This document shows positions 3,487 through 24,537 of a DNA stretch of 64,000 nt, in pieces. Position 1 is the first letter of the stretch. The number at the start of each line of letters is the position of its first letter. Source of the stretch: Escherichia coli (GTDB lineage: Bacteria > Pseudomonadota > Gammaproteobacteria > Enterobacterales > Enterobacteriaceae); NCBI RefSeq assembly GCF_046105845.1, contig NZ_CP151004.1; one strand, written 5' to 3'. Made by a program: the position numbers and the translations under genes. The notes below the pieces were generated by a model that worked only from the letters and a program-made list of their open reading frames with translations, was not told the DNA's origin and ran no database searches.

Positions 3487-3493
3487 TTTCATT

Positions 3494-3531
3494 GACAGCC
3501 ACATCATGATGACCGTGGCTGTTAGTTTTTG
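3494..3531 (+). terminator. Rho-independent terminator after lsrK
   Basis: Hairpin ACAGCCAC-loop-GTGGCTGT followed by TTAGTTTTT. Confidence 0.6.
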
Positions 3532-4009
3532 AGTATTCTTATTTCCCTTCTTTTAGATCTGGTTTGTTAAATGCCAGCTTGCAGATTCATCGTTCCATCG
3601 CCAGTAATATATTCAAGGGGAAATTGCTATTTTTCTTAAAATATTAAGCATAACCCTTATTTTATAGCGAATATTCCTAAAGACATAAATGAATGAAAAA
3701 GAGTTTTAATAGAGTTCTTTTTTAGCAATTAATGCTATTCTTTGTTAAATATGATGATGGTAATTTTCTTATTGAAAGAAACATTTTTCTTATTAAGCAA
3801 CAATAACTCATGGTTCATTTTTAAATAAAATAAGAACTATGCAATTTTTAATCTATCAATTCGAAAGTATTAGCAAATGAGCCAAATTGACACCTTCCCA
3901 CCTCCAACCAACACTCAATACAGACCTCTGACAACTTAATAAGTTTCATTTTTAACGTCTGATGACTCATCTCTTTCGTGGCTGTATTGTTTGTATATGG
4001 AGCGTTTAT

Positions 4010-7000
4010 ATGAATAGAATCTATCGCGTGATATGGAATTGCACCCTACAGGTATTTCAGGCCTGCTCGGAATTAACTCGCAGGGTAGGTAAAACATCAA
4101 CGGTTAATTTGCGTAAATCCTCTGGACTGACAACGAAATTCAGTAGATTGACGCTGGGTGTTTTGCTGGCACTAAGCGGTTCAGCGTCTGGTGCGAGTCT
4201 GGAAGTTGATAATGATCAGATTATCAATATTGATACTGATGTTGCTTATGATGCCTACCTGGTTGGGTGGTATGGCACTGGAGTGCTTAATATTTTGGCT
4301 GGCGGTAATGCCTCCTTAACCACTATTACTACCAGCGTCATTGGTGGTAATGAGAACTCGAAGGGCACCGTTAATGTTTTGGGTGGCACCTGGCGATTGT
4401 ATGATAGCGGAAATAATGCAAGGCCTTTAAATGTGGGCCAATCCGGAACGGGGATGCTGAATATTAAACAGAAGGGGCACGTTGACGGAGGCTATTTAAG
4501 ATTAGGTACTCAAGCTGTAGGCGTCGGGATGGTTAATGTTGAGGGAGAGGACTCGGTTCTGACGACCGAATTATTCGAAATAGGGAGTTACGGTACAGGC
4601 TCATTAAATATTACGGATAAGGGTTACGTCACGAGTTCAATCGTCGCCATTGTAGGATATCAGGCGAACAGCACTGGTAAGGTTGTCGTTGAAAAGGGTG
4701 GCGAGTGGCTAATAAAAAATAATGATTCCTCAATTGAATTTCAAATTGGTAATCAAGGAACTGGGGAGGCGACTATTCGCGAGGGTGGACTGATTACGGC
4801 TGAAAATACGATTATCGGTGGCAATGCCACCGGTATCGGAACCCTGAATGTGCAGGATCAAGACTCTGTCATCACGGTACGCAGAGTCTATAATGGATAT
4901 TTCGGTAATGGCACAGTCAATATTTCCAATAATGGACTGATTAATAATAAAGAATATTCATTGGTGGGCGTTCAGGACGGGTCCCACGGTGTCGTCAACG
5001 TGACCAATAAAGGGCATTGGAATTTCCTCGGAACGGGCGAAGCTTTCCGCTATATCTATATCGGTGATGCTGGCGACGGTGAACTTAATGTCTCTAGTGA
5101 AGGCAAAGTAGATTCGGGAATTATCACTGCGGGGATGAAAGAAACAGGCACAGGCAACATTACTATTAAGGATAAGAACTCCATTATCACTAATCTCGGA
5201 ACTAATCTTGGTTATGACGGCCACGGCGAAATGAATATCAGTAATGAGGGGCTTGTTATCAGCAACGGAGGAAGCTCACTCGGTTATGGAGAAACCGGCG
5301 TCGGGAAGGTTAGCATCACCACGGGGGGGATGTGGGAGGTCAATAAGAATGTCTATACCACCATTGGTGTTGCGGGCGTCGGAAACCTCAATATCAGCGA
5401 TGGCGGTAAGTTCGTATCGCAAAATATTACTTTTTTGGGCGATAAAGCAAGCGGTATCGGCACACTGAACCTGATGGATGCGACATCATCGTTCGATACT
5501 GTAGGTATCAATGTCGGTAATTTTGGTAGCGGCATCGTAAATGTCAGTAATGGTGCCACCCTTAATTCAACGGGCTATGGATTTATCGGAGGAAATGCCT
5601 CCGGTAAGGGGATAGTTAATATTTCAACGGATAGTCTCTGGAATTTAAAAACGTCATCTACTAACGCCCAATTGTTACAGGTCGGTGTATTAGGCACGGG
5701 TGAACTGAATATTAGCACCGGAGGTATAGTTAAAGCGCGTGATACACAAATAGCTCTCAATGACAAAAGTAAGGGCGACGTGCGGGTGGATGGGCAGAAC
5801 TCTCTTCTTGAAACATTCAATATGAACGTAGGGACGACTGGCACAGGTACGTTAACCCTGACGAATAACGGTACGCTGAATGTCGAAGGTGGAGAAGTTT
5901 ACTTAGGTGTTTTTGCGCCTGCTGTAGGAACGCTAAACATTGGTGCTGCTCACGGTGAGGCGGCGGCAGATGCCGGATTTATCACCAATGCGACGAAAGT
6001 GGAGTTTGGTCTTGGCGAAGGCGTTTTTGTCTTTAATCATACCAATAACAGTGATGCCGGCTACCAGGTCGATATGCTGATTACGGGTGACGATAAAGAC
6101 GGAAAAGTGATGCATGATGCAGGCCATACGGTGTTCAATGCAGGGAATACTTATAGCGGTAAAACGTTGGTCAATGGCGGCCTCCTGACCATTGCGTCAC
6201 ATACGGCAGATGGGGTAACGGGCATGGGTTCGAGTGAAGTAACCATTGCAAACCCCGGTACGCTCGACATTCTCGCATCAACGAACAGTGCAGGAGATTA
6301 CACGCTGACCAATGCGCTCAAAGGCGATGGCTTGATGCGAGTGCAGCTGTCATCCTCCGACAAAATGTTTGGCTTTACCCATGCAACAGGAACTGAATTC
6401 GCCGGTGTTGCCCAACTGAAAGACAGTACCTTCACACTGGAACGCGACAACACCGCTGCGCTTACTCACGCGATGCTTCAGTCTGACAGTGAAAATACCA
6501 CATCGGTAAAAGTGGGAGAGCAATCCATTGGTGGACTAGCCATGAATGGCGGTACGCTCACTTTCGATACGGATATACCTGCTGCGACGCTCGCGGAGGG
6601 ATATATCAGCGTCGATACGCTGGTTGTCGGCGCGGGTGACTACACCTGGAAAGGCCGTAACTATCAGGTAAACGGGACGGGCGACGTGCTTATCGACGTG
6701 CCTAAACCGTGGAATGATCCCATGGCGAATAACCCTCTGACGACGCTCAATTTGCTGGAACACGATGATAGTCATGTCGGCGTTCAACTGGTGAAGGCGC
6801 AAACGGTTATTGGGTCGGGTGGCTCATTAACGTTACGTGATTTACAGGGCGACGAGGTGGAAGCGGACAAAACGTTACATATTGCACAAAACGGGACAGT
6901 GGTCGCCGAGGGTGATTATGGATTCCGCCTCACGACCGCTCCTGGTGATGGTTTGTATGTTAACTATGGGCTGAAAGCGCTGAACATCCATGGTGGGCAA

Positions 7001-9430
7001 AAGCTGACGTTAGCCGAACATGGCGGAGCCTATGGCGCAACGGCCGATATGTCGGCAAAAATCGGTGGTGAAGGGGATCTGGCAATCAATACGGTGCGAC
7101 AGGTTTCGCTTTCTAACGGTCAGAACGACTATCAGGGGGCAACCTACGTTCAGATGGGGACATTACGTACCGATGCGGATGGCGCTCTGGGCAATACTCG
7201 GGAACTGAACATCAGCAACGCGGCCATCGTCGATCTTAATGGATCGGAGCAGACGGTAGAGACATTCACCGGGCTGATGGGTTCGACTATTTTGTTCAAA
7301 GAAGGTTCGCTGACGGTGAATAAAGGTGGGATCAGTCAGGGCGAACTGACAGGTGGCGGAAACCTGAATGTTACAGGGGGAACACTGGCTATCGAGGGGC
7401 TTAATGCACGCTACAATGCGTTAACCAGCATTAGCCCAAATGCGGAAGTCAGCCTCGACAATACGCAGGGGTTAGGCAGAGGAAATATTGCCAATGACGG
7501 TCTGTTAACGCTAAAAAACGTGACCGGCAAACTGCGCAATAGCATAAGCGGTAAAGGTATCGTGAGCGCAACCGCCAGCACAGACGTAGAGCTGGATGGC
7601 GATAATAGCCGCTTTGTGGGGCAATTCAACATCGATGCAGGCAGCGCGCTCAGCGTCAACGAGCAGAAAAACCTGGGTGATGCTTCCGTTATCAATAATG
7701 GCCTGCTCACCATCGCCACTGAGCGTAGCTGGGCGATGACGCACAGTATCACCGGTAGCGGCGATGTGACAAAACTGGGGACCGGGATCCTGACTCTTAA
7801 CAACGATTCCGCGGCGTATCAGGGTACGACGGATATCGTGGGTGGTGAAATTGCTTTCGGTTCCGACTCTGCCATTAATATGGCAAGTCAGCACATTAAT
7901 ATCCATAACAGCGGTGTGATGTCGGGAAATGTCACCACTGCAGGTGATGTGAACGTTATGCCAGGGGGGACACTGCGTGTCGCTAAAACCACTGTCGGCG
8001 GTAACCTGGAGAATGGTGGCACGGTTCAAATGAACAGCGAAGGGGGGAAACCGGGGAATGTACTGACCGTTAACGGCAACTATACCGGAAACAATGGCCT
8101 GATGACGTTCAACGCGACGCTGGGTGGCGATAATTCGCCCACGGATAAAATGAACGTGAAAGGCGATACCCAAGGGAATACTCGCGTTCGGGTTGATAAC
8201 ATTGGCGGCGTCGGTGCACAAACGGTCAACGGTATTGAACTCATTGAGGTTGGCGGTAATTCTGCAGGTAAATTCGCGCTGACCACCGGAACTGTCGAAG
8301 CTGGGGCTTACGTCTACACGCTGGCTAAAGGGAAGGGGAATGACGAGAAAAACTGGTATCTGACCAGTAAATGGGACGGCGTAACGCCAGCGGATACACC
8401 CGATCCCATCAATAATCCCCCTGTTGTGGATCCGGAAGGCCCATCAGTTTATCGCCCGGAGGCCGGAAGCTATATCAGCAACATTGCCGCAGCCAACTCG
8501 CTGTTTAGCCATCGCTTACACGACCGTCTGGGTGAGCCGCAGTATACAGATTCACTGCATTCTCAGGGTTCGGCAAGCAGTATGTGGATGCGTCATGTCG
8601 GGGGGCACGAACGTTTCAGGACCGGTGACGGCCAGCTAAATATTCAGGCTAACCGCTATGTATTGCAGCTAGGAGGCGATTTGGCGCAGTGGAGTAGCAA
8701 CGCGCAGGATCGCTGGCATCTCGGCATCATGGCAGGCTATGCCAATCAGCACAGTAATACTCAGAGTAATCATGTGGGTTATAAATCGGATGGGCGCATC
8801 AGCGGTTACAGCGCAGGACTGTACGCGACCTGGTATCAGAACGATGCGAATAAGACCGGCGCTTATGTTGACAGCTGGGCGCTGTATAACTGGTTTGATA
8901 ACAGCGTCAGTTCCGATAACCGTTCTGCTGACGACTATGATTCTCGCGGTGTGACGGCCTCTGTTGAGGGGGGGTATACCTTTGAAGCGGGAACATTTAG
9001 CGGCAGCGAAGGGACGCTGAATACCTGGTACGTCCAGCCACAGGTACAAATCACCTGGATGGGTGTGAAAGATTCTGACCATACCCGGAAAGACGGAACA
9101 CGCATTGAAACGGAAGGCGACGGAAACGTGCAAACGCGACTTGGGGTGAAAACCTACCTGAACAGCCATCACCAGCGTGACGATGGTAAACAGCGTGAGT
9201 TCCAGCCTTACATTGAAGCGAACTGGATCAACAACAGCAAAGTCTACGCCGTGAAGATGAATGGTCAAACCGTAAGCCGTGATGGTGCGCGTAATCTCGG
9301 TGAAGTACGTACCGGGGTTGAGGCGAAAGTAAATAACAACCTTAGCCTGTGGGGGAATGTCGGTGTGCAACTAGGTGATAAAGGCTATAGCGATACTCAG
9401 GGCATGCTGGGAGTGAAATATATCTGGTAA
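4010..9430 (+). CDS. ydeK: Large type Va autotransporter adhesin (full length, 1806 aa) with extended signal peptide region, repetitive beta-helix passenger and C-terminal beta-barrel
   Basis: Start at MNRIYRVIWNCTLQVF (ESPR-like) with GGAG RBS 7 nt upstream; many GTGxLNI/GNASG passenger repeats; C-terminus ends ...LGVKYIW (aromatic terminal residue). Locus position between lsrK and hipB matches ydeK/yneO, which I recall as a pseudogene in K-12. Confidence 0.85.
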   Translation: MNRIYRVIWNCTLQVFQACSELTRRVGKTSTVNLRKSSGLTTKFSRLTLGVLLALSGSASGASLEVDNDQIINIDTDVAYDAYLVGWYGTGVLNILAGGNASLTTITTSVIGGNENSKGTVNVLGGTWRLYDSGNNARPLNVGQSGTGMLNIKQKGHVDGGYLRLGTQAVGVGMVNVEGEDSVLTTELFEIGSYGTGSLNITDKGYVTSSIVAIVGYQANSTGKVVVEKGGEWLIKNNDSSIEFQIGNQGTGEATIREGGLITAENTIIGGNATGIGTLNVQDQDSVITVRRVYNGYFGNGTVNISNNGLINNKEYSLVGVQDGSHGVVNVTNKGHWNFLGTGEAFRYIYIGDAGDGELNVSSEGKVDSGIITAGMKETGTGNITIKDKNSIITNLGTNLGYDGHGEMNISNEGLVISNGGSSLGYGETGVGKVSITTGGMWEVNKNVYTTIGVAGVGNLNISDGGKFVSQNITFLGDKASGIGTLNLMDATSSFDTVGINVGNFGSGIVNVSNGATLNSTGYGFIGGNASGKGIVNISTDSLWNLKTSSTNAQLLQVGVLGTGELNISTGGIVKARDTQIALNDKSKGDVRVDGQNSLLETFNMNVGTTGTGTLTLTNNGTLNVEGGEVYLGVFAPAVGTLNIGAAHGEAAADAGFITNATKVEFGLGEGVFVFNHTNNSDAGYQVDMLITGDDKDGKVMHDAGHTVFNAGNTYSGKTLVNGGLLTIASHTADGVTGMGSSEVTIANPGTLDILASTNSAGDYTLTNALKGDGLMRVQLSSSDKMFGFTHATGTEFAGVAQLKDSTFTLERDNTAALTHAMLQSDSENTTSVKVGEQSIGGLAMNGGTLTFDTDIPAATLAEGYISVDTLVVGAGDYTWKGRNYQVNGTGDVLIDVPKPWNDPMANNPLTTLNLLEHDDSHVGVQLVKAQTVIGSGGSLTLRDLQGDEVEADKTLHIAQNGTVVAEGDYGFRLTTAPGDGLYVNYGLKALNIHGGQKLTLAEHGGAYGATADMSAKIGGEGDLAINTVRQVSLSNGQNDYQGATYVQMGTLRTDADGALGNTRELNISNAAIVDLNGSEQTVETFTGLMGSTILFKEGSLTVNKGGISQGELTGGGNLNVTGGTLAIEGLNARYNALTSISPNAEVSLDNTQGLGRGNIANDGLLTLKNVTGKLRNSISGKGIVSATASTDVELDGDNSRFVGQFNIDAGSALSVNEQKNLGDASVINNGLLTIATERSWAMTHSITGSGDVTKLGTGILTLNNDSAAYQGTTDIVGGEIAFGSDSAINMASQHINIHNSGVMSGNVTTAGDVNVMPGGTLRVAKTTVGGNLENGGTVQMNSEGGKPGNVLTVNGNYTGNNGLMTFNATLGGDNSPTDKMNVKGDTQGNTRVRVDNIGGVGAQTVNGIELIEVGGNSAGKFALTTGTVEAGAYVYTLAKGKGNDEKNWYLTSKWDGVTPADTPDPINNPPVVDPEGPSVYRPEAGSYISNIAAANSLFSHRLHDRLGEPQYTDSLHSQGSASSMWMRHVGGHERFRTGDGQLNIQANRYVLQLGGDLAQWSSNAQDRWHLGIMAGYANQHSNTQSNHVGYKSDGRISGYSAGLYATWYQNDANKTGAYVDSWALYNWFDNSVSSDNRSADDYDSRGVTASVEGGYTFEAGTFSGSEGTLNTWYVQPQVQITWMGVKDSDHTRKDGTRIETEGDGNVQTRLGVKTYLNSHHQRDDGKQREFQPYIEANWINNSKVYAVKMNGQTVSRDGARNLGEVRTGVEAKVNNNLSLWGNVGVQLGDKGYSDTQGMLGVKYIW

Positions 9431-9437
9431 ACCTTAT

Positions 9438-9472
9438 AAGCCGCATGTCGAAGATGGCATGCGGCTTAATAT
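9438..9472 (+). terminator. Terminator-like hairpin after autotransporter gene
   Basis: AAGCCGCATG-loop-CATGCGGCTT inverted repeat directly after stop; weak U tract. Confidence 0.45.
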
Positions 9473-9506
9473 TGCCGACTTCAAACGACTTTTAAATCCT
9501 CCTTTT

Positions 9507-9620
9507 TATCCGCGATCGCGGATATCACAGCGTTTATCCCGTAGAGCGGATAAAATGTGTTTCCTGATTGACTTTATCCCCACTAAAGGATAAAACTGAT
9601 AATATCCCCTTGAGCGGATA
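9507..9620 (+). promoter_or_regulatory. hipBA promoter with four HipB operator sites TATCC-N8-GGATA
   Basis: Four exact TATCC-N8-GGATA palindromes at 9507-9524, 9535-9552, 9575-9592, 9603-9620, immediately upstream of hipB. Confidence 0.9.
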
Positions 9621-9641
9621 AATATGCTGTGGACGTATGAC

Positions 9642-11230: not shown

Positions 11231-11510
11231 GATATGGGGTTTGGCTGTTGTTAATGAGCAGGACAATCATGACCGCCAACGACTGGATTCTCCCTTGGTT
11301 TATGTTGGTGCGCATAATGTATATTATGTTAAATTGAATTTGAGTGATACGAAGCGATTTTCCGGTCGTCGTTATTACTTCAGGGTTCCAGAACATAAAG
11401 CCTCTCCTCTTTCATAATTGGCCTGTGCATACCGGATATAGGCTGGCTGGTATGCAGGTTTGCCGTTTGCCGCATCTTCCCTGCGTTGAAGAGTCAGGCT
11501 GGCAAACCGC

Positions 11511-11765
11511 GTGCAAATGAACACCCCCTCTTTCCATCAACACTTCAGACAGCTTGCGGGAATGAGTCCACTCCGGTATCAGAAATGGCTACGCCTCAAT
11601 GAAGCCAGGCGACTGATGCTGAATGAACATTACGATGTCACCACTGCAGCCTATGCTGTCGGTTACGAAAGCTTATCCCATTTCAGTCGGGAATATTCGC
11701 GGATGTTTGGAGAGTCACCTAAGAGAGATATTACCGGGTTAAGAAAGTCTGTCGGTCAGCTTTAA
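11511..11765 (+). pseudogene. yneL: AraC-family regulator C-terminal HTH fragment (remnant)
   Basis: 84-aa ORF containing only an AraC-type HTH tail (…LRYQKWLRLNEARRLMLNEHYDVTTAAYAVGYESLSHFSREYSRMFGESP…); no N-terminal domain; position matches K-12 yneL pseudogene. Confidence 0.7.
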
Positions 11766-12199
11766 TAAACCCTGCACTTATCTGTTTAGAGCAATTCCGT
11801 GTTAGTTACACCAGTCAAACATTAACCATAGCTAATGTTTTATAGCCATATAAACCATTGGCCGCTCTTGACCTTTCCTGACACTTCCCTTGTTCGCAAT
11901 AATATTCTGTTTAGTCGCTGTTTATAAATAACATGCATAATGAAATCGTAATGTTATTTAGCGACATAAAATGTCTTTGCAAATACTCTCTACAACAAGT
12001 GCTGCAATAAACTTGTTGTGATTAGGTGTCCTTGTAATTTAAAGATATTATCGTTCTTCGTGAAATGTAATAACCCTGGAAACTATATTCTCAGGGCAAT
12101 ATCCCATCAAGAATGATTCTTGTTTTATAAGCAATAACAGAATTACTTAATTGTTAACTTTCTTTATTCAGCTACTTAAATATAAATTTTGGAGAATTA

Positions 12200-12762
12200 T
12201 GAAACTCAAACATGTCGGTATGATTGTCGTTTCTGTGTTGGCGATGTCGTCTGCTGCGGTAAGCGCAGCCGAGGGTGATGAATCAGTAACGACCACTGTT
12301 AATGGCGGTGTTATTCATTTTAAAGGTGAAGTGGTAAATGCCGCTTGTGCGATTGATTCAGAATCAATGAACCAAACGGTTGAGCTGGGTCAGGTCCGTT
12401 CTTCTCGTCTGGCTAAAGCGGGTGACCTCAGCTCCGCCGTTGGCTTCAATATCAAGCTGAATGATTGTGATACCAATGTTTCCAGTAATGCAGCTGTTGC
12501 ATTCCTGGGTACTACTGTCACCAGTAATGACGATACCTTAGCGCTGCAGAGTTCAGCGGCAGGCTCTGCCCAAAATGTCGGTATTCAAATTTTGGACCGT
12601 ACGGGGGAGGTATTAATACTTGATGGTGCCACTTTTAGCGCTAAAACCGACTTGATTGATGGCACGAATATACTGCCATTCCAGGCTCGTTATATTGCTC
12701 TCGGGCAGTCAGTAGCTGGTACTGCAAACGCTGATGCGACCTTCAAAGTTCAATATCTATAA
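12200..12762 (+). CDS. Fimbrial major subunit (type 1/F9-like pilin)
   Basis: Start at [23 protein letters not shown] (signal peptide); Cys pair and C-terminal ...TFKVQYL beta-strand typical of chaperone-usher pilins; first gene of a six-gene cluster. Confidence 0.85.
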
Positions 12763-12803
12763 TTCAATCTTAAGGTGGCTATACGTCATCTGAAATTGAA
12801 ACA

Positions 12804-12832
12804 GGGTGTGTGTGGCATGGCTACGCACACCC
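12804..12832 (+). other. 12-bp stem-loop in the pilin-chaperone intergenic region (possible intra-operon attenuator / mRNA stabiliser)
   Basis: GGGTGTGTGTGG-CATGG-CTACGCACACCC read directly; no U tract follows. Confidence 0.35.
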
Positions 12833-13122
12833 GAGCAATTCACCAATGTGAATCTCATTATTAATGAGGAGTGGTTTGTATTTGGAGCACTATGAAAAAT
12901 CACATAATATCTAAACGTTCAATAAACAACAGTAGTTAAACTTACTGTTATTTAAAATATTTACTTTGTAGCAAGGTTTTCCTGTTAAAAGAGAACCAAC
13001 ATTTATTACAAACGCATTAAGTCTGGAAACCCAGCGAGTCGCCGATGTATTAGCAACATTTACCGATTGTCTGATGTAACGGTTTCCCCGCTTATCCTCT
13101 TAACACATGGAGAATGCATCAG

Positions 13123-13833
13123 ATGCAAACTACGCGTACCCCCTACTCTGTTTCCTTTATGGCGACAGTGTTACTTTTATTGGTCTTTGCTTGCCATAGC
13201 ACCATTGCCAACGCAGCTGTCGCACTGGGTGCGACGCGGGTAATTTATCCGGCAAACCAGAAACAGGTTTTATTGCCTGTCACGAATAATGATCCTGCCA
13301 GTGTCTATCTCATTCAGTCATGGATAGAAAATGCAGGTGACCAAAAAGACACCCAGTTTGTCATTACCCCACCGCTTTTTTCCATGCAAGGTAAAAAAGA
13401 GAATACGCTGCGGATAATCAACGCCACTAATCATCAGTTACCAGGCGACCGTGAAAGCCTGTTCTGGGTGAATGTTAAAGCTATTCCTGCTATGGAAAAA
13501 GACCAGAAGAATGAGAATACATTACAGCTGGCAATTATTAGCCGCATAAAAATGTTTTATCGCCCCACGAACCTGGCAATGGCACCTGAAGAAGCGCCTG
13601 CAATGCTTCGGTTTCGTCGCAGCGGTAGCAAACTCACTCTTATTAATCCAACGCCCTACTTCATTACCGTAACAAATATGAAAGCAGGAAATAGCAATCT
13701 CCCAAACACCATGGTGCCGCCAAAAGGTGAAGTATCGGTGGATATCCCGCATGCTGCAACCGGGGATATCAGTTTTCAGACGATCAATGATTACGGTGCA
13801 TTAACTCCGCGTATTAAGGCAACCATGCAGTAA
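13123..13833 (+). CDS. Periplasmic fimbrial chaperone (PapD/FimC family)
   Basis: Signal peptide then ...RVIYPANQKQVLLPVTNNDPASVYLIQSWIE...; typical chaperone N-terminal motif. Start could be 13114 or 13123. Confidence 0.85.
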   Translation: MQTTRTPYSVSFMATVLLLLVFACHSTIANAAVALGATRVIYPANQKQVLLPVTNNDPASVYLIQSWIENAGDQKDTQFVITPPLFSMQGKKENTLRIINATNHQLPGDRESLFWVNVKAIPAMEKDQKNENTLQLAIISRIKMFYRPTNLAMAPEEAPAMLRFRRSGSKLTLINPTPYFITVTNMKAGNSNLPNTMVPPKGEVSVDIPHAATGDISFQTINDYGALTPRIKATMQ

Positions 13834-13874
13834 GCCAGTGACCTAATTAATAATAAACTCAATCGGAATTAAAA

Positions 13875-16526
13875 ATGACAGCCTTTCGTGCCGCATTTAA
13901 GGCATATCGTATGCATCAGGTGTTACTACTGCCTCGCTTTGCACGGCTTACCATTGCCCTTGGCTTAGCAACTGCGGTATTTCCCGTTGACGCAGAGTAT
14001 TATTTTAATCCACGGTTTTTAAGCAATGATCTTGCTGAATCTGTCGATTTATCCGCCTTTACTAAGGGACGCGAGGCACCACCTGGTACATATCGGGTCG
14101 ACATTTATTTGAACGACGAATTTATGACTAGTCGGGATATTACTTTTATTGCAGATGATAATAACGCAGATCTCATCCCATGCCTGAGTACAGATCTTCT
14201 TGTCAGTCTTGGCATAAAAAAATCAGCGTTATTAGACAATAAAGAACATTCGGCAGAAAAACATGTGCCGGACAACAGCACATGCACACCACTTCAGGAT
14301 CGTTTGGCTGACGCATCATCTGAGTTTGATGTTGGTCAGCAACATCTGTCACTCTCCGTTCCGCAAATTTATGTTGGCAGAATGGCTCGCGGCTATGTTT
14401 CTCCGGATCTGTGGGAAGAAGGAATAAATGCTGGGCTACTAAACTATAGTTTTAATGGTAATTCTATTAATAATCATAGTAACCATAATGCAGGAAAATC
14501 CAACTATGCATATTTGAATTTACAGAGTGGCATCAACATTGGTAGTTGGCGACTGCGTGATAACTCAACGTGGAGTTATAACAGTGGGAGTAGCAATTCA
14601 TCTGACAGCAATAAATGGCAGCATATCAATACGTCGGCTGAACGTGACATTATTCCCTTACGCTCACGGTTAACGGTGGGTGATAGTTATACCGATGGCG
14701 ATATTTTTGATAGTGTGAACTTTCGTGGCCTCAAAATAAATTCAACAGAAGCGATGTTGCCCGATAGCCAACATGGTTTCGCTCCGGTGATTCATGGTAT
14801 TGCCCGTGGCACAGCACAAGTGAGTGTAAAACAGAATGGATACGATGTTTATCAGACTACTGTTCCACCCGGCCCTTTTACTATTGATGATATCAACTCT
14901 GCGGCCAATGGTGGTGATCTGCAAGTAACCATAAAAGAGGCAGACGGCAGTATTCAGACATTATATGTTCCTTATTCGTCTGTTCCGGTTCTCCAACGTG
15001 CTGGATATACGCGTTATGCGCTTGCCATGGGGGAATATCGTAGTGGAAATAACCTGCAAAGCTCCCCCAAGTTCATACAAGGTAGCTTGATGCATGGACT
15101 GGAAGGAAACTGGACACCTTATGGCGGAATGCAAATTGCAGAAGATTATCAGGCCTTCAACCTTGGTATTGGTAAAGATTTAGGACTTTTTGGTGCCTTT
15201 TCTTTCGATATCACGCAGGCCAATACGACACTTGCAGATGGCACCCGTCACAGCGGGCAATCGATTAAATCCGTCTACAGCAAATCCTTCTACCAGACGG
15301 GAACCAATATCCAGGTCGCAGGATATCGCTATTCTACGCAAGGTTTTTATAACTTATCCGACAGTGCCTACAGTCGAATGAGTGGTTACACCGTCAAGCC
15401 TCCTACCGGAGACAGCAATGAGCAGACACAATTTATTGATTATTTTAATCTGTTCTACAGTAAGCGTGGTCAGGAACAAATAAGCATCTCTCAGCAGCTT
15501 GGAAATTACGGTACGACATTTTTCAGTGCCAGTCGCCAAAGTTACTGGAACACGTCACGCAGCGACCAGCAAATATCATTTGGATTAAATGTGCCGTTTG
15601 GCGATATTACAACTTCGCTGAATTACAGCTATTCCAATAATATATGGCAAAACGATCGGGATCATTTACTTGCTTTTACGCTTAATGTTCCCTTCAGTCA
15701 TTGGATGCGTACAGACAGTCAGTCGGCATTTCGTAATTCAAACGCCAGTTACAGTATGTCAAACGATTTGAAAGGCGGCATGACCAATCTATCAGGGGTT
15801 TATGGCACTCTGCTGCCGGATAATAACCTGAATTATAGCGTTCAGGTAGGTAACACCCACGGAGGTAATACATCGTCTGCCACCAGTGGTTACAGTTCTC
15901 TTAATTATCGTGGAGCTTACGGTAATACTAATGTCGGTTACAGTCGGAGTGGGGACAGCAGCCAGATTTATTACGGAATGAGTGGTGGGATTATTGCTCA
16001 TGCTGATGGCATCACCTTTGGTCAGCCGCTGGGCGACACAATGGTTCTGGTTAAGGCTCCTGGCGCTGATAATGTCAAAATAGAGAACCAGACCGGAATT
16101 CATACCGACTGGCGTGGCTATGCCATATTACCATTTGCGACAGAATATAGAGAAAATCGTGTCGCTCTTAACGCGAATTCCCTTGCAGATAATGTTGAAC
16201 TGGATGAAACCGTGGTCACTGTCATCCCAACTCACGGTGCTATTGCCAGAGCAACATTTAATGCACAAATCGGCGGGAAAGTATTAATGACGTTGAAGTA
16301 CGGTAATAAGAGCGTTCCATTCGGTGCAATTGTCACTCACGGAGAGAATAAAAATGGCAGCATTGTCGCGGAAAACGGTCAGGTTTATCTGACTGGACTT
16401 CCACGGTCAGGGAAATTACAGGTTTCATGGGGCAATGATAAAAACTCAAACTGTATAGTCGATTACAAGCTTCCTGAAGTCACTCCTGGAACCTTACTGA
16501 ACCAGCAGACAGCAATCTGTCGCTAA
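13875..16526 (+). CDS. ydeT: Fimbrial outer-membrane usher (full length, 883 aa)
   Basis: Length and sequence features of PapC/FimD ushers (…YFNPRFL…, C-terminal Cys pair …NSNCIVDYKLPEV…TAICR). Position corresponds to ydeT, which I recall as truncated in K-12. Confidence 0.85.
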   Translation: MTAFRAAFKAYRMHQVLLLPRFARLTIALGLATAVFPVDAEYYFNPRFLSNDLAESVDLSAFTKGREAPPGTYRVDIYLNDEFMTSRDITFIADDNNADLIPCLSTDLLVSLGIKKSALLDNKEHSAEKHVPDNSTCTPLQDRLADASSEFDVGQQHLSLSVPQIYVGRMARGYVSPDLWEEGINAGLLNYSFNGNSINNHSNHNAGKSNYAYLNLQSGINIGSWRLRDNSTWSYNSGSSNSSDSNKWQHINTSAERDIIPLRSRLTVGDSYTDGDIFDSVNFRGLKINSTEAMLPDSQHGFAPVIHGIARGTAQVSVKQNGYDVYQTTVPPGPFTIDDINSAANGGDLQVTIKEADGSIQTLYVPYSSVPVLQRAGYTRYALAMGEYRSGNNLQSSPKFIQGSLMHGLEGNWTPYGGMQIAEDYQAFNLGIGKDLGLFGAFSFDITQANTTLADGTRHSGQSIKSVYSKSFYQTGTNIQVAGYRYSTQGFYNLSDSAYSRMSGYTVKPPTGDSNEQTQFIDYFNLFYSKRGQEQISISQQLGNYGTTFFSASRQSYWNTSRSDQQISFGLNVPFGDITTSLNYSYSNNIWQNDRDHLLAFTLNVPFSHWMRTDSQSAFRNSNASYSMSNDLKGGMTNLSGVYGTLLPDNNLNYSVQVGNTHGGNTSSATSGYSSLNYRGAYGNTNVGYSRSGDSSQIYYGMSGGIIAHADGITFGQPLGDTMVLVKAPGADNVKIENQTGIHTDWRGYAILPFATEYRENRVALNANSLADNVELDETVVTVIPTHGAIARATFNAQIGGKVLMTLKYGNKSVPFGAIVTHGENKNGSIVAENGQVYLTGLPRSGKLQVSWGNDKNSNCIVDYKLPEVTPGTLLNQQTAICR

Positions 16527-16539
16527 GGAACAATAGATT

Positions 16540-17070
16540 ATGAAATACAATAACGTTATTTTCCTCGGTTTATGTCTGGGGTTAACCACCTATTCTGCTT
16601 TATCCGCAGATAGCGTTATTAAAATTAGCGGGCGCGTCCTCGATTATGGCTGCACAGTCTCATCGGATTCGCTTAATTTTACCGTAGATCTCCAAAAAAA
16701 CAGTGCCAGACAATTTCCAACGACCGGTAGCACAAGTCCAGCCGTCCCTTTTCAGATTACGTTAAGTGAATGCAGCAAAGGGACAACGGGGGTTCGAGTT
16801 GCATTTAACGGGATTGAGGATGCAGAAAATAATACTCTGTTGAAACTGGATGAAGGAAGCAATACAGCCTCCGGTTTGGGTATAGAAATACTGGACGGAA
16901 ATATGCGTCCGGTGAAATTGAATGACCTTCATGCCGGGATGCAGTGGATCCCACTGGTACCAGAACAGAACAATATTTTGCCTTACTCCGCTCGTCTGAA
17001 GTCAACTCAGAAGTCCGTCAATCCGGGACTGGTGAGGGCTTCGGCAACCTTTACCCTTGAATTTCAATAA
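16540..17070 (+). CDS. ydeS: Fimbrial minor subunit
   Basis: 176-aa pilin-like protein with signal peptide and Cys pair; gene order matches K-12 ydeS. Confidence 0.8.
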   Translation: MKYNNVIFLGLCLGLTTYSALSADSVIKISGRVLDYGCTVSSDSLNFTVDLQKNSARQFPTTGSTSPAVPFQITLSECSKGTTGVRVAFNGIEDAENNTLLKLDEGSNTASGLGIEILDGNMRPVKLNDLHAGMQWIPLVPEQNNILPYSARLKSTQKSVNPGLVRASATFTLEFQ

Positions 17071-17082
17071 TCAGAGTCAGAT

Positions 17083-17586
17083 ATGAAAAGACTTCACAAG
17101 AGGTTCCTGTTAGCTACGTTTTGCGCGTTATTCACAGCAACTCTCCAGGCCGCCGATGTCACTATCACTGTTAATGGTCGGGTAGTCGCTAAACCCTGCA
17201 CTATTCAAACCAAAGAAGCTAACGTTAATCTCGGGGATCTTTATACACGCAATCTGCAACAACCTGGCTCTGCATCTGGCTGGCACAATATTACTTTGTC
17301 ATTAACCGATTGTCCGGTTGAAACAAGTGCAGTGACGGCAATCGTGACAGGTTCAACTGACAATACGGGTTATTACAAAAATGAAGGTAGTGCCGAAAAT
17401 ATTCAGATAGAGCTGAGGGACGACCAGGATGCTGCGTTAAAAAATGGCGATAGCAAAACGGTTATTGTTGATGAGATCACTCGTAATGCACAGTTTCCAC
17501 TTAAGGCAAGAGCTATCACGGTGAATGGAAACGCAAGCCAGGGAACGATCGAGGCTCTAATCAATGTGATCTACACCTGGCAATAA
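17083..17586 (+). CDS. ydeR: Fimbrial minor subunit
   Basis: 167-aa pilin-like protein with signal peptide; gene order matches K-12 ydeR. Confidence 0.8.
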   Translation: MKRLHKRFLLATFCALFTATLQAADVTITVNGRVVAKPCTIQTKEANVNLGDLYTRNLQQPGSASGWHNITLSLTDCPVETSAVTAIVTGSTDNTGYYKNEGSAENIQIELRDDQDAALKNGDSKTVIVDEITRNAQFPLKARAITVNGNASQGTIEALINVIYTWQ

Positions 17587-17645
17587 CGTCGATTCGATTT
17601 TCTTAGCCTCCTTTTTAAATCAATTTTTTAACCTTAGGATATATC

Positions 17646-18560
17646 ATGGGTAAAACAATAAGTATGAAGCTTCTGTTCGGTATTTATCTTCTATTAATGG
17701 CAGGCAAAGTTTTTGCCTTCAGTTGTAATGTCGATGGCGGGTCAAGTATTGGAGCAGGTACAACCTCTGTTTATGTTAATCTCGACCCTGTAATACAACC
17801 GGGCCAGAATCTGGTTGTAGACTTGTCTCAGCACATAAGTTGCTGGAATGATTACGGCGGCTGGTACGACACTGATCATATAAACCTGGTACAAGGCTCA
17901 GCTTTCGCAGGCTCTCTACAGTCATATAAAGGATCGCTGTACTGGAATAATGTGACCTACCCCTTCCCGTTGACGACAAATACTAATGTATTAGATATTG
18001 GTGATAAGACACCGATGCCATTACCGTTAAAACTCTATATTACCCCAGTCGGTGCGGCCGGTGGAGTTGTCATAAAAGCCGGGGAAGTTATTGCCCGTAT
18101 TCATATGTATAAAATTGCCACGTTAGGAAGCGGAAATCCGCGTAATTTTACGTGGAATATTATTTCAAATAACAGTGTTGTTATGCCAACAGGCGGCTGC
18201 ACCGTTGATAGTCGTAATGTCAACGTGAATCTCCCGGACTTTCCTGGAAGCGCAGAAATACCCCTTGGCGTATATTGCTCAAGTGAACAAAAGCTCTCAT
18301 TTTATCTTTCGGGTGCTACCACTGACAGTGCCAGACAAGTGTTTGCTAACACAGCACCAGATGCAACAAAAGCATCGGGAGTGGGTGTCTCTCTGATGCG
18401 TAATGGAAAAATACTGGCTACGGGAGAAAACGTCTCCCTGGGGACAGTAAATAAAAGCAAAGTACCTCTGGGTTTAAGCGCAACCTATGGACAAACAGGA
18501 AACAAGGTTGCAGCCGGAACCGTCCAGTCAGTCATTGGTGTCACTTTTATCTATGAATAA
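17646..18560 (+). CDS. ydeQ: Fimbrial tip adhesin (FimH-like two-domain adhesin)
   Basis: 304-aa, signal peptide, N-terminal lectin-like domain + C-terminal pilin domain; last gene of fimbrial operon. Confidence 0.8.
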
Positions 18561-21172: not shown

Positions 21173-21185
21173 TTCGCCTCCTCAT

Positions 21186-21216
21186 TTCTTCTGCTGTCAT
21201 CCGCACAGCAGAAGAA
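21186..21216 (+). terminator. Terminator-like hairpin after ydeP
   Basis: 12-bp stem TTCTTCTGCTGT / ACAGCAGAAGAA with 7-nt loop; weak U tract. Confidence 0.5.
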
Positions 21217-21290
21217 TTCCTCATTGACCATTGTCGCGCAATTTACTCACATGTGCTAAATTAAACTGCTCGTTATAAGATATATACCTC

Positions 21291-21308
21291 CGCCTACAGC
21301 TGTAAGAA
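21291..21308. promoter_or_regulatory. EvgA box (CGCCTACA-GC-TGTAAGAA) upstream of safA-ydeO
   Basis: Second copy of the EvgA inverted-repeat motif; safA-ydeO is a known EvgA-activated operon. Confidence 0.7.
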
Positions 21309-21419
21309 ACTCCGCTCAGTACTGAAGCGCCAGTCCTATTTCCTCTATTCTCCAGCCTGTTATATTAAGCATACTGATTAACGATGCTTAACGTCATTCG
21401 TTTAATAAACATATTTGAA

Positions 21420-21617
21420 ATGCATGCGACCATAGTGAAAAATAAAATCACGCAAAGAGACAACTATAAAGGGATCATGTCTGTAATTGTGGTTGTATTA
21501 TTACTGACCCTTACATTGATAGCCATTTTTTCGGCAATTGATCAGCTGGGTATTTCAGAAATGGGTCGCATTGCAAGGGATCTTACACATTTCATTATCA
21601 ATAGTTTGCAAGACTGA
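21420..21617 (+). CDS. safA: Small membrane connector protein SafA (links EvgS/EvgA to PhoQ/PhoP)
   Basis: 65-aa product MHATIVKNKITQRDNYKGIMSVIVVVLLLTLTLIAIFSAIDQLG...; single TM helix; position before ydeO. Confidence 0.85.
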   Translation: MHATIVKNKITQRDNYKGIMSVIVVVLLLTLTLIAIFSAIDQLGISEMGRIARDLTHFIINSLQD

Positions 21618-21691
21618 AAATAAACAGCAAATTATAAATATGAAATGTTAAAAAAGTATCGATAAAAACTTTATTGTTTTAAGGAGATAAA

Positions 21692-22453
21692 ATGTCGCTC
21701 GTTTGTTCTGTTATATTTATTCATCATGCCTTCAACGCTAACATTTTAGATAAAGATTACGCCTTCTCTGACGGCGAGATCCTGATGGTAGATAACGCTG
21801 TTCGTACGCATTTTGAACCTTATGAGCGGCATTTCAAAGAAATCGGATTTAATGAAAATACCATTAAAAAATATCTACAATGCACTAACATCCAGACAGT
21901 GACGGTGCCTGTTCCTGCGAAGTTTTTACGTGCTTCAAATGTACCGACTGGATTGCTTAATGAAATGATTGCTTATCTCAACTCGGAAGAACGCAATCAT
22001 CATAATTTTTCAGAACTTTTGCTTTTTTCTTGCCTGTCTATTTTTGCCGCATGCAAAGGTTTCATTACACTATTAACTAACGGTGTGCTATCCGTTTCCG
22101 GGAAAGTGAGAAATATTGTCAACATGAAGCTGGCGCACCCATGGAAGCTGAAAGATATTTGTGACTGCCTGTACATCAGTGAAAGCCTGCTCAAGAAAAA
22201 ACTAAAGCAAGAGCAAACGACATTCTCACAGATTCTTTTAGATGCCAGAATGCAGCACGCAAAAAATTTGATACGCGTAGAAGGTTCTGTTAATAAAATT
22301 GCCGAACAATGTGGTTATGCCAGTACATCTTATTTTATTTATGCGTTCCGCAAACATTTCGGCAACAGTCCGAAGAGAGTTTCTAAGGAGTACCGTTGTC
22401 AAAGGCACACGGGAATAAATACGGGCAACACGATGAATGCTTTAGCTATTTGA
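21692..22453 (+). CDS. ydeO: AraC-family acid-resistance regulator YdeO
   Basis: 253-aa ORF with C-terminal AraC HTH (…YASTSYFIYAFRKHFGNSPKR…); matches K-12 YdeO. Confidence 0.9.
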   Translation: MSLVCSVIFIHHAFNANILDKDYAFSDGEILMVDNAVRTHFEPYERHFKEIGFNENTIKKYLQCTNIQTVTVPVPAKFLRASNVPTGLLNEMIAYLNSEERNHHNFSELLLFSCLSIFAACKGFITLLTNGVLSVSGKVRNIVNMKLAHPWKLKDICDCLYISESLLKKKLKQEQTTFSQILLDARMQHAKNLIRVEGSVNKIAEQCGYASTSYFIYAFRKHFGNSPKRVSKEYRCQRHTGINTGNTMNALAI

Positions 22454-22499
22454 TTATTTGCTAACGAGTAGTCAACCACACACGCTACGTAAGAATTAA

Positions 22500-22531
22500 A
22501 TGGGGCAGCCATTTCCTGCCCCGCGTTGTTT
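22500..22531 (+). terminator. Rho-independent terminator after ydeO
   Basis: GGGGCAG-CCATTTC-CTGCCCC followed by GCGTTGTTTTT. Confidence 0.7.
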
Positions 22532-22854
22532 TTAGGCGATATATTTATTGAAATAAATAAGTGACATTCATCACATATTTATGCATTTGCATAACCCGTT
22601 GCATGATTATTTATGATCTCAATTCGGCATTTTGTCAGTAAAATACAATAATTTATTAAATATCAATAGATTAGTTGTTTATCATCGAGAAATTACTTAG
22701 TAGAACAGAAAGTAATGTCAACGCTTTATGGACTGTTATTTCCCTTTTTTTAGCTAAATCTGCTATCTCTTTATGTGACTAACTTCACTTACATTCACTT
22801 ATTTCTCTTCGTAAAATTACTTTGGAATTAAGTACAATAAGAAGAGGAACATTT

Positions 22855-24537
22855 ATGAAGTCTGCATTAAAGAAAAGTGTCGTAAGTACCTCGATATCTT
22901 TGATACTGGCATCTGGTATGGCTGCATTTGCTGCTCATGCGGCAGATGATGTAAAGCTAAAAGCAACCAAAACAAACGTTGCTTTCTCAGACTTTACGCC
23001 GACTGAATACAGTACCAAGGGAAAGCCAAATATTATCGTACTGACTATGGATGATCTTGGTTATGGACAACTTCCTTTTGATAAGGGATCTTTTGACCCA
23101 AAAACAATGGAAAATCGTGAAGTTGTCGATACCTACAAAATAGGGATAGATAAAGCCATTGAAGCTGCGCAAAAATCAACGCCGACGCTCCTTTCATTAA
23201 TGGATGAAGGCGTACGTTTTACTAACGGCTATGTGGCGCACGGTGTTTCCGGCCCCTCCCGCGCCGCAATAATGACCGGTCGAGCGCCCGCCCGCTTTGG
23301 TGTCTATTCCAATACCGATGCTCAGGATGGTATTCCGCTAACAGAAACTTTCTTGCCTGAATTATTCCAGAATCATGGTTATTACACTGCAGCAGTAGGT
23401 AAATGGCACTTGTCAAAAATCAGTAATGTGCCAGTACCAGAAGATAAACAAACGCGTGACTATCATGACAACTTCACCACATTTTCTGCGGAAGAATGGC
23501 AACCTCAAAACCGTGGCTTTGATTACTTTATGGGATTCCACGCTGCAGGAACGGCATATTACAACTCCCCTTCACTGTTCAAAAACCGTGAACGCGTCCC
23601 CGCAAAAGGTTATATCAGCGATCAGTTAACCGATGAGGCAATTGGCGTTGTTGATCGTGCCAAAACACTTGACCAGCCTTTTATGCTTTACCTGGCTTAT
23701 AATGCTCCGCACCTGCCAAATGATAATCCTGCACCGGAGCAATATCAGAAGCAATTTAATACTGGTAGTCAAACAGCAGATAACTACTACGCTTCCGTTT
23801 ATTCTGTTGATCAGGGTGTAAAACGCATTCTCGAACAACTGAAGAAAAACGGACAGTATGACAATACTATTATTCTCTTTACCTCCGATAATGGTGCGGT
23901 TATCGATGGTCCTCTGCCGCTGAACGGGGCGCAAAAAGGCTATAAGAGTCAGACCTATCCTGGCGGTACTCACACCCCAATGTTTATGTGGTGGAAAGGA
24001 AAACTTCAACCCGGTAATTATGACAAGCTGATTTCCGCAATGGATTTCTACCCGACAGCTCTTGATGCAGCCGATATCAGCATTCCAAAAGACCTTAAGC
24101 TGGATGGCGTTTCCTTGCTGCCGTGGTTGCAAGATAAGAAACAAGGCGAGCCACATAAAAATCTGACCTGGATAACCTCTTATTCTCACTGGTTTGACGA
24201 GGAAAATATTCCATTCTGGGATAATTACCACAAATTTGTCCGCCATCAGTCAGACGATTACCCGCATAACCCCAATACCGAGGACTTAAGCCAATTCTCT
24301 TATACGGTGAGAAATAACGATTATTCGCTTGTCTATACAGTAGAAAACAATCAGTTAGGTCTATACAAACTGACGGATCTACAGCAAAAAGATAACATTG
24401 CCGCCGCCAATCCGCAGGTCGTTAAAGAGATGCAAGGCGTGGTAAGAGAGTTTATCGACAGCAGCCAGCCACCGCTTAGCGAGGTAAATCAGGAGAAGTT
24501 TAACAATATCAAGAAAGCACTAAGCGAAGCGAAATAA
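22855..24537 (+). CDS. ydeN: Ser-type sulfatase (periplasmic, signal peptide)
   Basis: Start MKSALKKSVVSTSISLILASGMAAFAAHA with RBS AAGAGGAA; sulfatase signature S-G-P-S-R-AAIMTGR (Ser in the C/S-x-P-x-R motif) read at approx. 23250-23285. Confidence 0.9.
   Translation: MKSALKKSVVSTSISLILASGMAAFAAHAADDVKLKATKTNVAFSDFTPTEYSTKGKPNIIVLTMDDLGYGQLPFDKGSFDPKTMENREVVDTYKIGIDKAIEAAQKSTPTLLSLMDEGVRFTNGYVAHGVSGPSRAAIMTGRAPARFGVYSNTDAQDGIPLTETFLPELFQNHGYYTAAVGKWHLSKISNVPVPEDKQTRDYHDNFTTFSAEEWQPQNRGFDYFMGFHAAGTAYYNSPSLFKNRERVPAKGYISDQLTDEAIGVVDRAKTLDQPFMLYLAYNAPHLPNDNPAPEQYQKQFNTGSQTADNYYASVYSVDQGVKRILEQLKKNGQYDNTIILFTSDNGAVIDGPLPLNGAQKGYKSQTYPGGTHTPMFMWWKGKLQPGNYDKLISAMDFYPTALDAADISIPKDLKLDGVSLLPWLQDKKQGEPHKNLTWITSYSHWFDEENIPFWDNYHKFVRHQSDDYPHNPNTEDLSQFSYTVRNNDYSLVYTVENNQLGLYKLTDLQQKDNIAAANPQVVKEMQGVVREFIDSSQPPLSEVNQEKFNNIKKALSEAK

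Follow-up and report, generated by a model that had tools for sequence, protein, structure and literature searches.

An AT-rich intergenic leader as a probable H-NS platform upstream of an accessory autotransporter-adhesin gene in Escherichia coli

Why is the DNA between lsrK and a large autotransporter gene of Escherichia coli so rich in A and T, and does that composition mark foreign DNA, a regulatory region, or both? We addressed this question in a 64,000-nucleotide stretch of chromosome (hereafter, the window) that runs from lsrA to narU and is equivalent to approximately 1.60 to 1.54 Mb of K-12, in reversed orientation. For gene order we relied on the way RefSeq annotates the genomes that match best (98.4-98.9% identity; among 5426 complete E. 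coli genomes). The left end carries lsrA, lsrR and lsrK, an ECSE_1600-family autotransporter gene and hipBA, followed by an AraC-type pseudogene, the six-gene F9/ydeQRST fimbrial operon, ydeP, safA, ydeO and ydeNM. The middle is made up of yddAB, pqqL, gadBC, digH, dosCP and ddpXABCDF, and the right part of osmC, bdm, sra, maeA, adhP, yddM, fdnGHI, yddG, an OmpC-like porin gene, two LRR genes and narU. The original prediction, made by eye, listed six AT-rich segments in this region and held that their adhesin, fimbrial or effector-like gene content is consistent with horizontally acquired DNA silenced by H-NS.

We expressed the rarity of each segment as the fraction of same-length windows with a GC content as low or lower, derived domain boundaries from maximum-likelihood segmentation, and assessed codon-level composition by GC3. 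The mosaic is real: all six segments lie below the GC content of the whole window, 0.470, and a GC content like that of the tract at 3540-3960 (28.7%), or lower, is reached by only 0.08% of windows of its length (Table 1). The list itself was only partly borne out, because one of its members, 12760-13110, is unexceptional and comparable tracts, such as the pqqL/gadB spacer, had been omitted. Other AT-rich tracts missing from it are the ydeQ/ydeP (GC 0.319), lsrA/lsrR (0.343) and osmC/bdm (0.355) spacers and the ydeM gene (0.389).

Pooled over the window, GC content is 0.371 in intergenic and 0.483 in coding DNA. Since four of the six segments are intergenic spacers and intergenic GC is already low, the usual contrast between coding and non-coding sequence accounts for part of the mosaic. 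The gap between the four flagged spacers and the other 13 long spacers is modest (mean GC 0.318 vs 0.379; one-sided Mann-Whitney P = 0.04). Low GC within genes was confined to a few loci: against a median GC3 of 0.513 over the genes of the window, we found 0.394 in safA, 0.402 in ydeO, 0.396 in ydeM, and 0.332 and 0.319 in the two LRR ORFs, with moderately low values (0.39-0.46) in the F9 genes. The six segments are therefore of three kinds, namely four promoter spacers, the species-wide safA-ydeO block, and the segment known as O-island 62. The idea that the islands contain adhesin, fimbrial or effector genes does not apply to the four spacers, which have no gene content; low GC inside genes is found in safA-ydeO and the LRR segment. 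Atypical composition of the cargo, likewise, is evident for the LRR ORFs (GC3 0.32-0.33), moderate for F9, safA and ydeO (0.39-0.46), and lacking in the autotransporter gene (0.519 vs the median of 0.513).

Table 1. Coordinates and properties of the features discussed (positions in the window; fraction, proportion of same-length windows with GC as low or lower)
Feature	Position	Strand	GC	Fraction	Remarks
Probable intrinsic terminator of lsrRK	3491-3530	+			hairpin 3491-3526, then T-run; predicted fold -17.4 kcal/mol, z = -3.98 vs shuffles
lsrK to autotransporter spacer	3487-4009		0.308		523 bp
AT-rich tract	3540-3960	.	0.287	0.0008	most of the lsrK-autotransporter spacer; orthologue of K-12 promoter island 1596197_345
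AT-rich core	3606-3877	.	0.224		272 bp; GC 0.463 outside; likelihood ratio 58 (segmentation)
Distal leader	3701-3879				identity to L086/L087 0.67-0.69
Promoter-proximal region	3880-4009				identity to L086/L087 0.81-0.85
Candidate -35, TTGACA	3887-3892	+			perfect; invariant in window, K-12, L086 and L087; prediction
Weak candidate -10, AACACT	3910-3915	+			17 nt 3' of TTGACA; prediction
CTGACA-17-TTTAAC	3928-3956	+			-35 at 3928-3933; counterpart of the predicted sigma-70 promoter at the K-12 SELEX peak, CTGACA-17-TTTAAT
Near-invariant block upstream of ATG	3967-4009	+			includes Shine-Dalgarno GGAG; one variable column across four aligned sequences
ECSE_1600/YneO(YdeK)-family autotransporter gene	4010-9430	+			1806 aa; intact; RefSeq name, Pfam; third codon positions, identity to L086/L087 0.65-0.675
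Presence/absence unit	3580-9502	+			AT-rich leader and autotransporter gene; empty site in L007 at 3579/9503
F9 (ydeQRST/fml) fimbrial promoter and 251-nt leader	11766-12198	+	0.321		pseudogene to F9 major subunit spacer; exact match to mapped CFT073 promoter
Flagged segment, F9 promoter	11770-12200		0.323	0.020	
F9 -35, TAGTCG	11912-11917				18-nt spacer to -10
F9 -10, CATAAT	11936-11941				
F9 start site, G	11948				251 nt before ATG
F9 major subunit to chaperone spacer	12763-13113	+	0.373		ordinary intergenic; ~9% of same-length windows as low
Flagged segment, F9 spacer	12760-13110		0.370	0.091	
Low-GC safA-ydeO block and spacers	21173-22854	+			GC: safA 0.369, ydeO 0.395, ydeO/ydeN spacer 0.312
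Flagged segment, safA-ydeO	21180-22850		0.364	0.040	
pqqL/gadB spacer	32973-33333	+	0.305		unlisted earlier; AT-rich segment 33004-33361, GC 0.277, likelihood ratio 65
yddG to porin spacer, upstream of OmpC-like porin	58721-58978	+	0.271		porin intact here, fragment yddL in K-12
Flagged segment, porin upstream	58720-58980		0.268	0.003	
EHEC O-island 62 equivalent	60080-63139	+	0.33-0.35		two intact tandem LRR ORFs, 60243-61508 and 61550-62827
Flagged segment, LRR genes	60120-63140		0.341	0.0002	

Upstream, the tract is bounded by the lsrK stop codon at 3486 and the putative lsrRK terminator. This terminator is also the edge of the region conserved within the genus, as homology with three Escherichia genomes of ~90% identity stops at 3521, 3534 and 3579. 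Runs of four or more A/T occur at 3.4 per 100 bp across 3540-3890, and the AT-rich tract is followed by a C-rich patch at about 3893-3925 and the promoter-proximal region. The finer signals that we looked for within the tract were not in excess. The H-NS 10-mer TCGATAAATT, allowing up to two mismatches, gave two overlapping matches, each with two mismatches, and no enrichment; the same search across the window gave 118 matches vs 88 expected. With so few matches in the tract, the motif is uninformative. Helical phasing of AA/TT at 9.5-11.5 bp was not above shuffled sequences in seven AT-rich regions (six spacers and the flagged core). Sigma-70-like hexamer pairs were three to six times denser in the tract than in the lsrK gene, but did not exceed the expectation from composition (strict definition, 0 vs 2.5 in shuffles; loose definition, 7 vs 12.9±4.1). 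A strong depletion of such sites, apparent with single-nucleotide shuffles, became marginal with dinucleotide-preserving shuffles (P = 0.03-0.08) and was discarded, as it fails multiple testing.

Near the autotransporter gene, we compared the window with K-12 and with two diverged orthologous loci, L086 and L087, which are described below. Two candidate promoters lie in this interval. In the alignment of these four sequences, the final T of the -10 element of the SELEX-associated promoter is found only in K-12, and its -35 CTGACA is not kept in L086 or L087; the block 3911-3929, in turn, is invariant in all four. The stretch immediately upstream of the start codon (3967-4009) is nearly invariant and under purifying selection. 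Conserved blocks are also seen in the leader, at about 3626-3682 and 3722-3740.

The spacer 3487-4009 is 94.1% identical to that of K-12 and has the same flanking genes; this is close to the identity at third positions of lsrK (94.2%) and of the autotransporter gene (93.6%). The ydeK(yneO)/lsrK spacer of K-12 is one of 78 promoter islands found genome-wide, island 1596197_345 (Panyukov & Ozoline 2013, PMC3661553), which are defined with PlatProm as having at least 8 predicted start points per 100-bp sliding window over at least 300 bp. This island was scored 'A', denoting H-NS binding in all of the ChIP studies compared, which numbered three (PMC3661553). The same source records K-12 ydeK as foreign in one of three foreign-gene prediction studies, without an IslandViewer or GIST flag (PMC3661553). 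Shimada et al. found that the RpoD holoenzyme binds the K-12 spacer, with CTGACA-17-TTTAAT as the best-match promoter, and marked an H-NS genomic-SELEX site there (PMC3946193); the RpoS holoenzyme likewise binds the ydeK/lsrK spacer of K-12 (PMC5493296).

Thus, 3540-3960 is orthologous to a listed promoter island. The two share a syntenic spacer with 94% identity, a length of ~345 bp, AT-richness, a position 5' of the same autotransporter gene and, in K-12, bound H-NS. They differ in that the gene is intact in the window but a pseudogene (yneO) in K-12, in the -10 element (TTTAAC vs TTTAAT), and in that the promoter-like sites of the window are, by simple hexamer criteria, no denser than composition predicts. 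For 3540-3960, the promoter-island label would accordingly be owed to orthology and to the published PlatProm analysis, as our simple hexamer scans did not reproduce the property. K-12 binding together with 94% identity suggests that H-NS occupies 3540-3960 in the strain of the window as well. The binding evidence for the leader all comes from K-12, in which the autotransporter gene is a pseudogene. With its K-12 counterpart published as a promoter island bound by H-NS, the AT-rich leader is an ordinary observation.

H-NS is known for the xenogeneic silencing of AT-rich acquired DNA (Navarre 2006, Lucchini 2006, Oshima 2006, reviewed in PMC3064808), and Kahramanoglou et al. have provided a general framework that separates short, promoter-type H-NS regions from long, silencing ones (PMC3064808). 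The autotransporter locus is like a xenogeneically silenced one in its AT-rich DNA, H-NS occupancy (K-12 data), accessory gene, and surface- or virulence-type cargo. It is unlike one in that AT-richness is confined to the leader of ~0.4 kb, whereas the 5.4-kb autotransporter gene has native composition. Of the two classes of H-NS region, the leader is more like the short one, which lies upstream of operons and is transcription-factor-like, than the long silencing one; the 3-kb LRR segment of O-island 62 is a better fit for the latter.

The autotransporter protein has matches to the Pfam families ESPR, Pertactin, AC_1 and Autotransporter, corresponding to an extended signal peptide, a pertactin-like passenger, an autochaperone and a beta-barrel. 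Because ESPR begins at residue 1, the ATG at 4010 is confirmed as the start codon. The protein is 97% identical to 1806-aa clusters, and the gene, with a GC content of 0.500 and a GC3 of 0.519, is indistinguishable from lsrK and above the median of the window. Its K-12 orthologue is a pseudogene. The lsrK-autotransporter spacer was found in 4224 of the 5426 E. coli genomes, mostly at 90-95% identity, and the unit is missing from 22%. According to the SE11 genome paper, three phylogroup B2 strains lack the autotransporter gene, and the copies of MG1655, E24377A and Sakai are truncated (PMC2608844). In one E. coli genome, an IS1 insertion removed the spacer and the 5' end of the gene.

We scanned for LsrK in one genome per species, which yielded 80 loci; none of these, from other species-level genomes, has the autotransporter gene 3' of lsrK. 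Three of the 80 belong to the Escherichia genomes of ~90% identity, and in these homology ends where GC drops, at 3534 (L005), 3521 (L006) and 3579 (L007). In L007, lsrK is followed by 83 unrelated bp and then by sequence that resumes at window position 9503, upstream of hipB. L007 lacks exactly 3580-9502; thus, the leader and the gene are a single presence/absence unit. These 83 bp look as if they encoded a C-terminal beta-strand (…ANYYVF). Comparison of this 83-bp sequence with the 3' end of the autotransporter gene gave no significant match, leaving deletion and an ancestral empty site undistinguished. The same site holds a transposase-like HTH gene in L005 and a tyrosine recombinase with ABC-3C defence genes in L006, and the position after the lsrK terminator appears to be a hotspot of variable content in the genus. 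The mobility signatures that recent acquisition would lead one to expect did not materialize at the autotransporter unit. The only candidate for terminal repeats around 3580-9502 was a 22-nt inverted match of 77% (3613-3634 and 9592-9613), which is probably due to chance; three apparent plasmid copies proved to be chromosomes of 4.8-4.9 Mb, with no true plasmid copy among the matches; and no integrase, transposase or tRNA is annotated beside the unit in the best-matching genome.

A protein search recovered full-length, 1806-aa orthologues with 85-86% identity, two of which are on the contigs L086 ('Enterobacteriaceae bacterium G50') and L087. In both, the left neighbor is a divergent pao/xanthine-dehydrogenase-like operon rather than lsrK, and hipBA lies to the right, as it does in the window. 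Their leaders of ~417 bp have a GC content of 33-34.5% and can be aligned with the window up to the ATG, starting at about 3575-3627. At the DNA level, leader and gene are ~83% identical to the window. Identity in the distal leader is about that of third codon positions of the autotransporter gene, and identity in the promoter-proximal region is higher (Table 1). By this comparison, the sequence of the distal leader seems to turn over at a near-neutral rate while its AT-richness persists. Because orthologues with an AT-rich leader occur in lineages ~16-18% diverged, and because the gene has native composition, the unit is an old accessory module rather than a recent low-GC import. Leader and autotransporter gene are gained or lost as one, and are found together in a second genomic context.

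A parallel within the window is the F9 promoter, which is derepressed in an hns mutant of CFT073 and is bound by H-NS in gel shift (Wurpel et al. 2014, PMC3966885), and whose operon has been judged ancestral to E. coli (PMC3966885). Both are AT-rich leaders before cryptic adhesin genes; however, H-NS control has been shown experimentally for F9, whereas for the autotransporter leader the data are genome-wide binding in K-12. The safA-ydeO block is present in 5344 of the 5426 E. coli genomes, and at 84.5% identity in the ~90%-identical Escherichia L007. Its spacer in K-12, ydeO/safA, is an H-NS-bound promoter island that four of five island and foreign-gene predictors flag (PMC3661553). By its distribution, safA-ydeO is old, species-wide low-GC DNA and not an island that varies within the species. 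A further K-12 promoter island occupied by H-NS is the gadB/pqqL spacer, which carries none of the five island and foreign-gene flags (PMC3661553).

The LRR segment is a true genomic island of low GC content. Coverage of 80% or more was seen in only 1009 of the 5426 genomes, and one ORF of the O157 counterpart is annotated as espR1. O-island 62 (Z2239-Z2242, espR1) has a GC content of 33-36% against 48-50% in its flanks (PMC3079680; see also PMC4060028 for O-island 62 and the LRR genes). The segment occupies this very locus, flanked by the porin gene and narU, and its GC content of 33-35% matches the published range; it differs in that both LRR ORFs and the porin gene are intact in the window, while K-12 keeps the fragments yddL and yddJ, plus yddK. 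At the porin upstream region, the LRR genes and the F9 intra-operon spacer, H-NS binding would be expected from composition; our literature search found no binding data for the F9 spacer, and no usable data for the porin upstream region or the LRR genes (yddK, yddL, yddJ).

Published data thus back the proposal of H-NS silencing for half of the six segments, through their orthologues (the autotransporter leader and ydeO/safA in K-12, and F9 in CFT073); to the other three it extends by composition. Horizontal acquisition holds for O-island 62 and is plausible, though of old date, for the accessory autotransporter module; safA-ydeO is species-wide, and for the four segments that are promoter spacers the description is wrong. 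Variable presence with an empty site, similarly, was seen for the autotransporter unit (spacer in 4224/5426 genomes; empty in L007) but not for safA-ydeO (5344/5426). The best explanation for the wider mosaic is a combination of promoter leaders that are prone to H-NS binding and head gene modules, core ones included, with the old safA-ydeO block and one true low-GC island.

For the autotransporter locus, we consider it probable that 3540-3960 serves an accessory autotransporter-adhesin gene as its regulatory leader and is a platform on which H-NS nucleates and spreads. In this model, lsrRK transcription would halt at the predicted hairpin terminator. The next ~350 bp, including the core of 22% GC, has no detectable gene and would be occupied by H-NS, as the K-12 orthologue is in vivo. 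The autotransporter promoter would lie at the 3' edge of the AT-rich tract or just beyond it, with the TTGACA at 3887 and the SELEX-associated site as candidates. H-NS filaments extending from the tract could then cover this promoter or trap RNA polymerase at it, and the adhesin would stay silent under laboratory conditions until some signal or anti-silencer relieves the repression. Leader and gene are inherited as one module. That the intact gene is silenced, and which promoter serves it, are in this scheme suppositions that we infer from the K-12 data and from predicted elements. Several observations count against the H-NS-leader reading: AT-biased mutation of unconstrained DNA could bring GC content down to ~33% with no selection; the motif, phasing and hexamer tests were null; and the SELEX-associated site has the -10 TTTAAC and an unconserved -35.

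In a rival account, the tract is ordinary intergenic AT-richness, produced by AT-biased drift together with generic promoter and terminator signals, and H-NS occupancy is a passive by-product. Pooled intergenic GC is low throughout the window (0.371), spacers beside core genes are as AT-rich (pqqL/gadB, 0.305; lsrA/lsrR, 0.343; osmC/bdm, 0.355), the distal leader evolves at the rate of third codon positions, and the tract has no specific motif, phasing or promoter excess. Drift is nevertheless hard to reconcile with a core of 22.4% GC over 272 bp in a tract among the lowest 0.08% of same-length windows, with the retention of 33-34.5% GC in orthologues ~16-18% diverged despite sequence turnover, or with a K-12 spacer that is among only 78 promoter islands and is bound by H-NS in all ChIP studies compared. 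We regard this account as unlikely, if the most serious of the alternatives.

A recent import of low-GC foreign DNA, wholly silenced by long H-NS filaments, would explain why the unit is missing from 22% of E. coli genomes, with the gene absent from three B2 strains (PMC2608844), why none of the 80 lsrK loci of other species-level genomes has the autotransporter after lsrK, and why one of three prediction studies calls K-12 ydeK foreign. It is very improbable given that the gene has the same composition as lsrK (GC 0.500, GC3 0.519, above the median), that IslandViewer and GIST raise no flag in K-12, that integrase, tRNA, flanking repeats and true plasmid copies were not found, and that full-length orthologues of 85-86% identity keep the same leader and the linkage to hipBA in distant lineages, as expected of an old module. 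Least probable of all is that the tract conceals an unannotated small RNA or small-protein gene to which it owes its composition. The spacer is long enough (523 bp) and includes the conserved blocks noted above, but an Rfam search of the tract gave nothing that reached the gathering score or E < 0.1 (the best, STnc420, had E = 0.27 and 21 bits, where the gathering score is 70). No ORF in the tract reaches 60 aa, and the only one inside it is a 40-aa minus-strand ORF; an ATG at 3962 is absent from the L086 and L087 rows of the alignment; and the distal leader diverges at a neutral rate.

All major elements of the H-NS-leader reading are already in the literature. The modest new point is that the autotransporter leader is co-inherited with its gene across genomic contexts, with its composition kept while its sequence decays. 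A bolder extension, which we put forward as a tentative and rather doubtful idea, is that selection on composition may have made the leader a portable self-silencing module, whose AT content is actively maintained while the sequence turns over neutrally. If so, the adhesin would be under H-NS control from its arrival at any new location and would remain so, and AT-richness would be an adaptation of the cargo, not the relic of a low-GC donor. More generally, an AT-rich patch in this part of the E. coli chromosome is a sign of the regulatory 5' end of a gene module and not, by itself, of a foreign island. A true island (O-island 62) can be told from promoter leaders (the lsrK/autotransporter, F9, pqqL/gadB and porin spacers) only by the GC3 of the gene body and presence/absence taken together. 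The autotransporter leader thus offers a clean natural test case for selection on the composition of H-NS-binding leaders.

The leader of the autotransporter gene, which holds the AT-rich tract 3540-3960, was compared with orthologues that are ~83% identical in DNA over the leader and gene and lie on two distant Enterobacteriaceae contigs (L086 and L087 5880-6000). Three elements, among them a perfect TTGACA, are invariant or nearly so (see table). CTGACA (3928-3933), the -35 element proposed by Shimada et al. (PMC3946193), is not kept in the orthologues, and the TTTAAT form of the -10 element occurs in K-12 alone, all others compared having TTTAAC. The published best match may not be the true autotransporter promoter. 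At the other end of the autotransporter presence/absence unit, the right breakpoint (9502/9503) is separated by 2-3 bp from the start of palindromes of the hipB operator type (TATCC-N8-GGATA).

Feature coordinates in the window and in related loci
Feature	Location	Strand	Observation
Perfect TTGACA	window 3887-3892		invariant or nearly so
19-nt block	window 3911-3929		invariant or nearly so
~43 nt directly 5' of autotransporter ATG	window 3967-4009		invariant or nearly so
hipB operator-type palindromes	window 9505-9554 and 9573-9622
fdnG selenocysteine insertion element	window 56967-57025	-	Rfam, 84.3 bits
3' of lsrK terminator, L005	11641-13808		transposase-like HTH gene
3' of lsrK terminator, L006	11630-21590		tyrosine recombinase and ABC-3C defence genes
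3' of lsrK terminator, L007	11668-11750		terminator side joined directly to hipBA

The DNA directly 3' of the lsrK terminator differs among three ~90%-identical Escherichia loci (L005, L006 and L007), and on this comparison the position is a hotspot of variable content. When L007 was compared with window 11335-18521 and 22579-25721, ydeNM was found to be absent, as was the F9 (ydeQRST/fml) fimbrial operon save for a 134-bp remnant (equivalent to window 16490-16623), which suggests a deletion in the L007 lineage. AT-rich spacers in the window coincide with the boundaries of these missing modules. In the window itself, ATG 22855 is the most likely start codon of ydeN, since translation from there yields the K-12 signal peptide (MKSALKK…); in the best-matching genome, RefSeq places the start at an ATT codon 177 bp further downstream (23032).

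Window 58979-62827 carries an intact OmpC-like porin gene (366 aa) followed by two tandem LRR ORFs, also both intact. The ORFs are listed at 421 and 425 aa, and their likely start codons are the ATGs at 60249 and 61571. In most genomes, K-12 included, a deletion has left the fragments yddL and yddJ, and window 60080-63139 is at least 80% complete in just 1009 of 5426 genomes. Across these 5426 complete E. coli genomes, the best whole-window identity is merely 98.4-98.9%, the top matches being mostly environmental or wild-animal isolates. Several loci that have often decayed in other E. coli genomes, namely the autotransporter gene, the F9 operon, the porin gene and the LRR genes, are without exception intact here, and the source lineage is thus poorly represented. 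The fdnG selenocysteine insertion element, the sole Rfam family at or above gathering score in the window, accounts for the single in-frame TGA.

With a GC of 0.305 overall and 0.277 in its core, the pqqL/gadB spacer (32973-33333) equals the tract at 3540-3960 in AT-richness; hexamers resembling a -10 element are relatively frequent in it. Its K-12 equivalent is an H-NS-bound promoter island without a foreign-gene flag. This spacer is a counter-example against taking AT-rich DNA as acquired.
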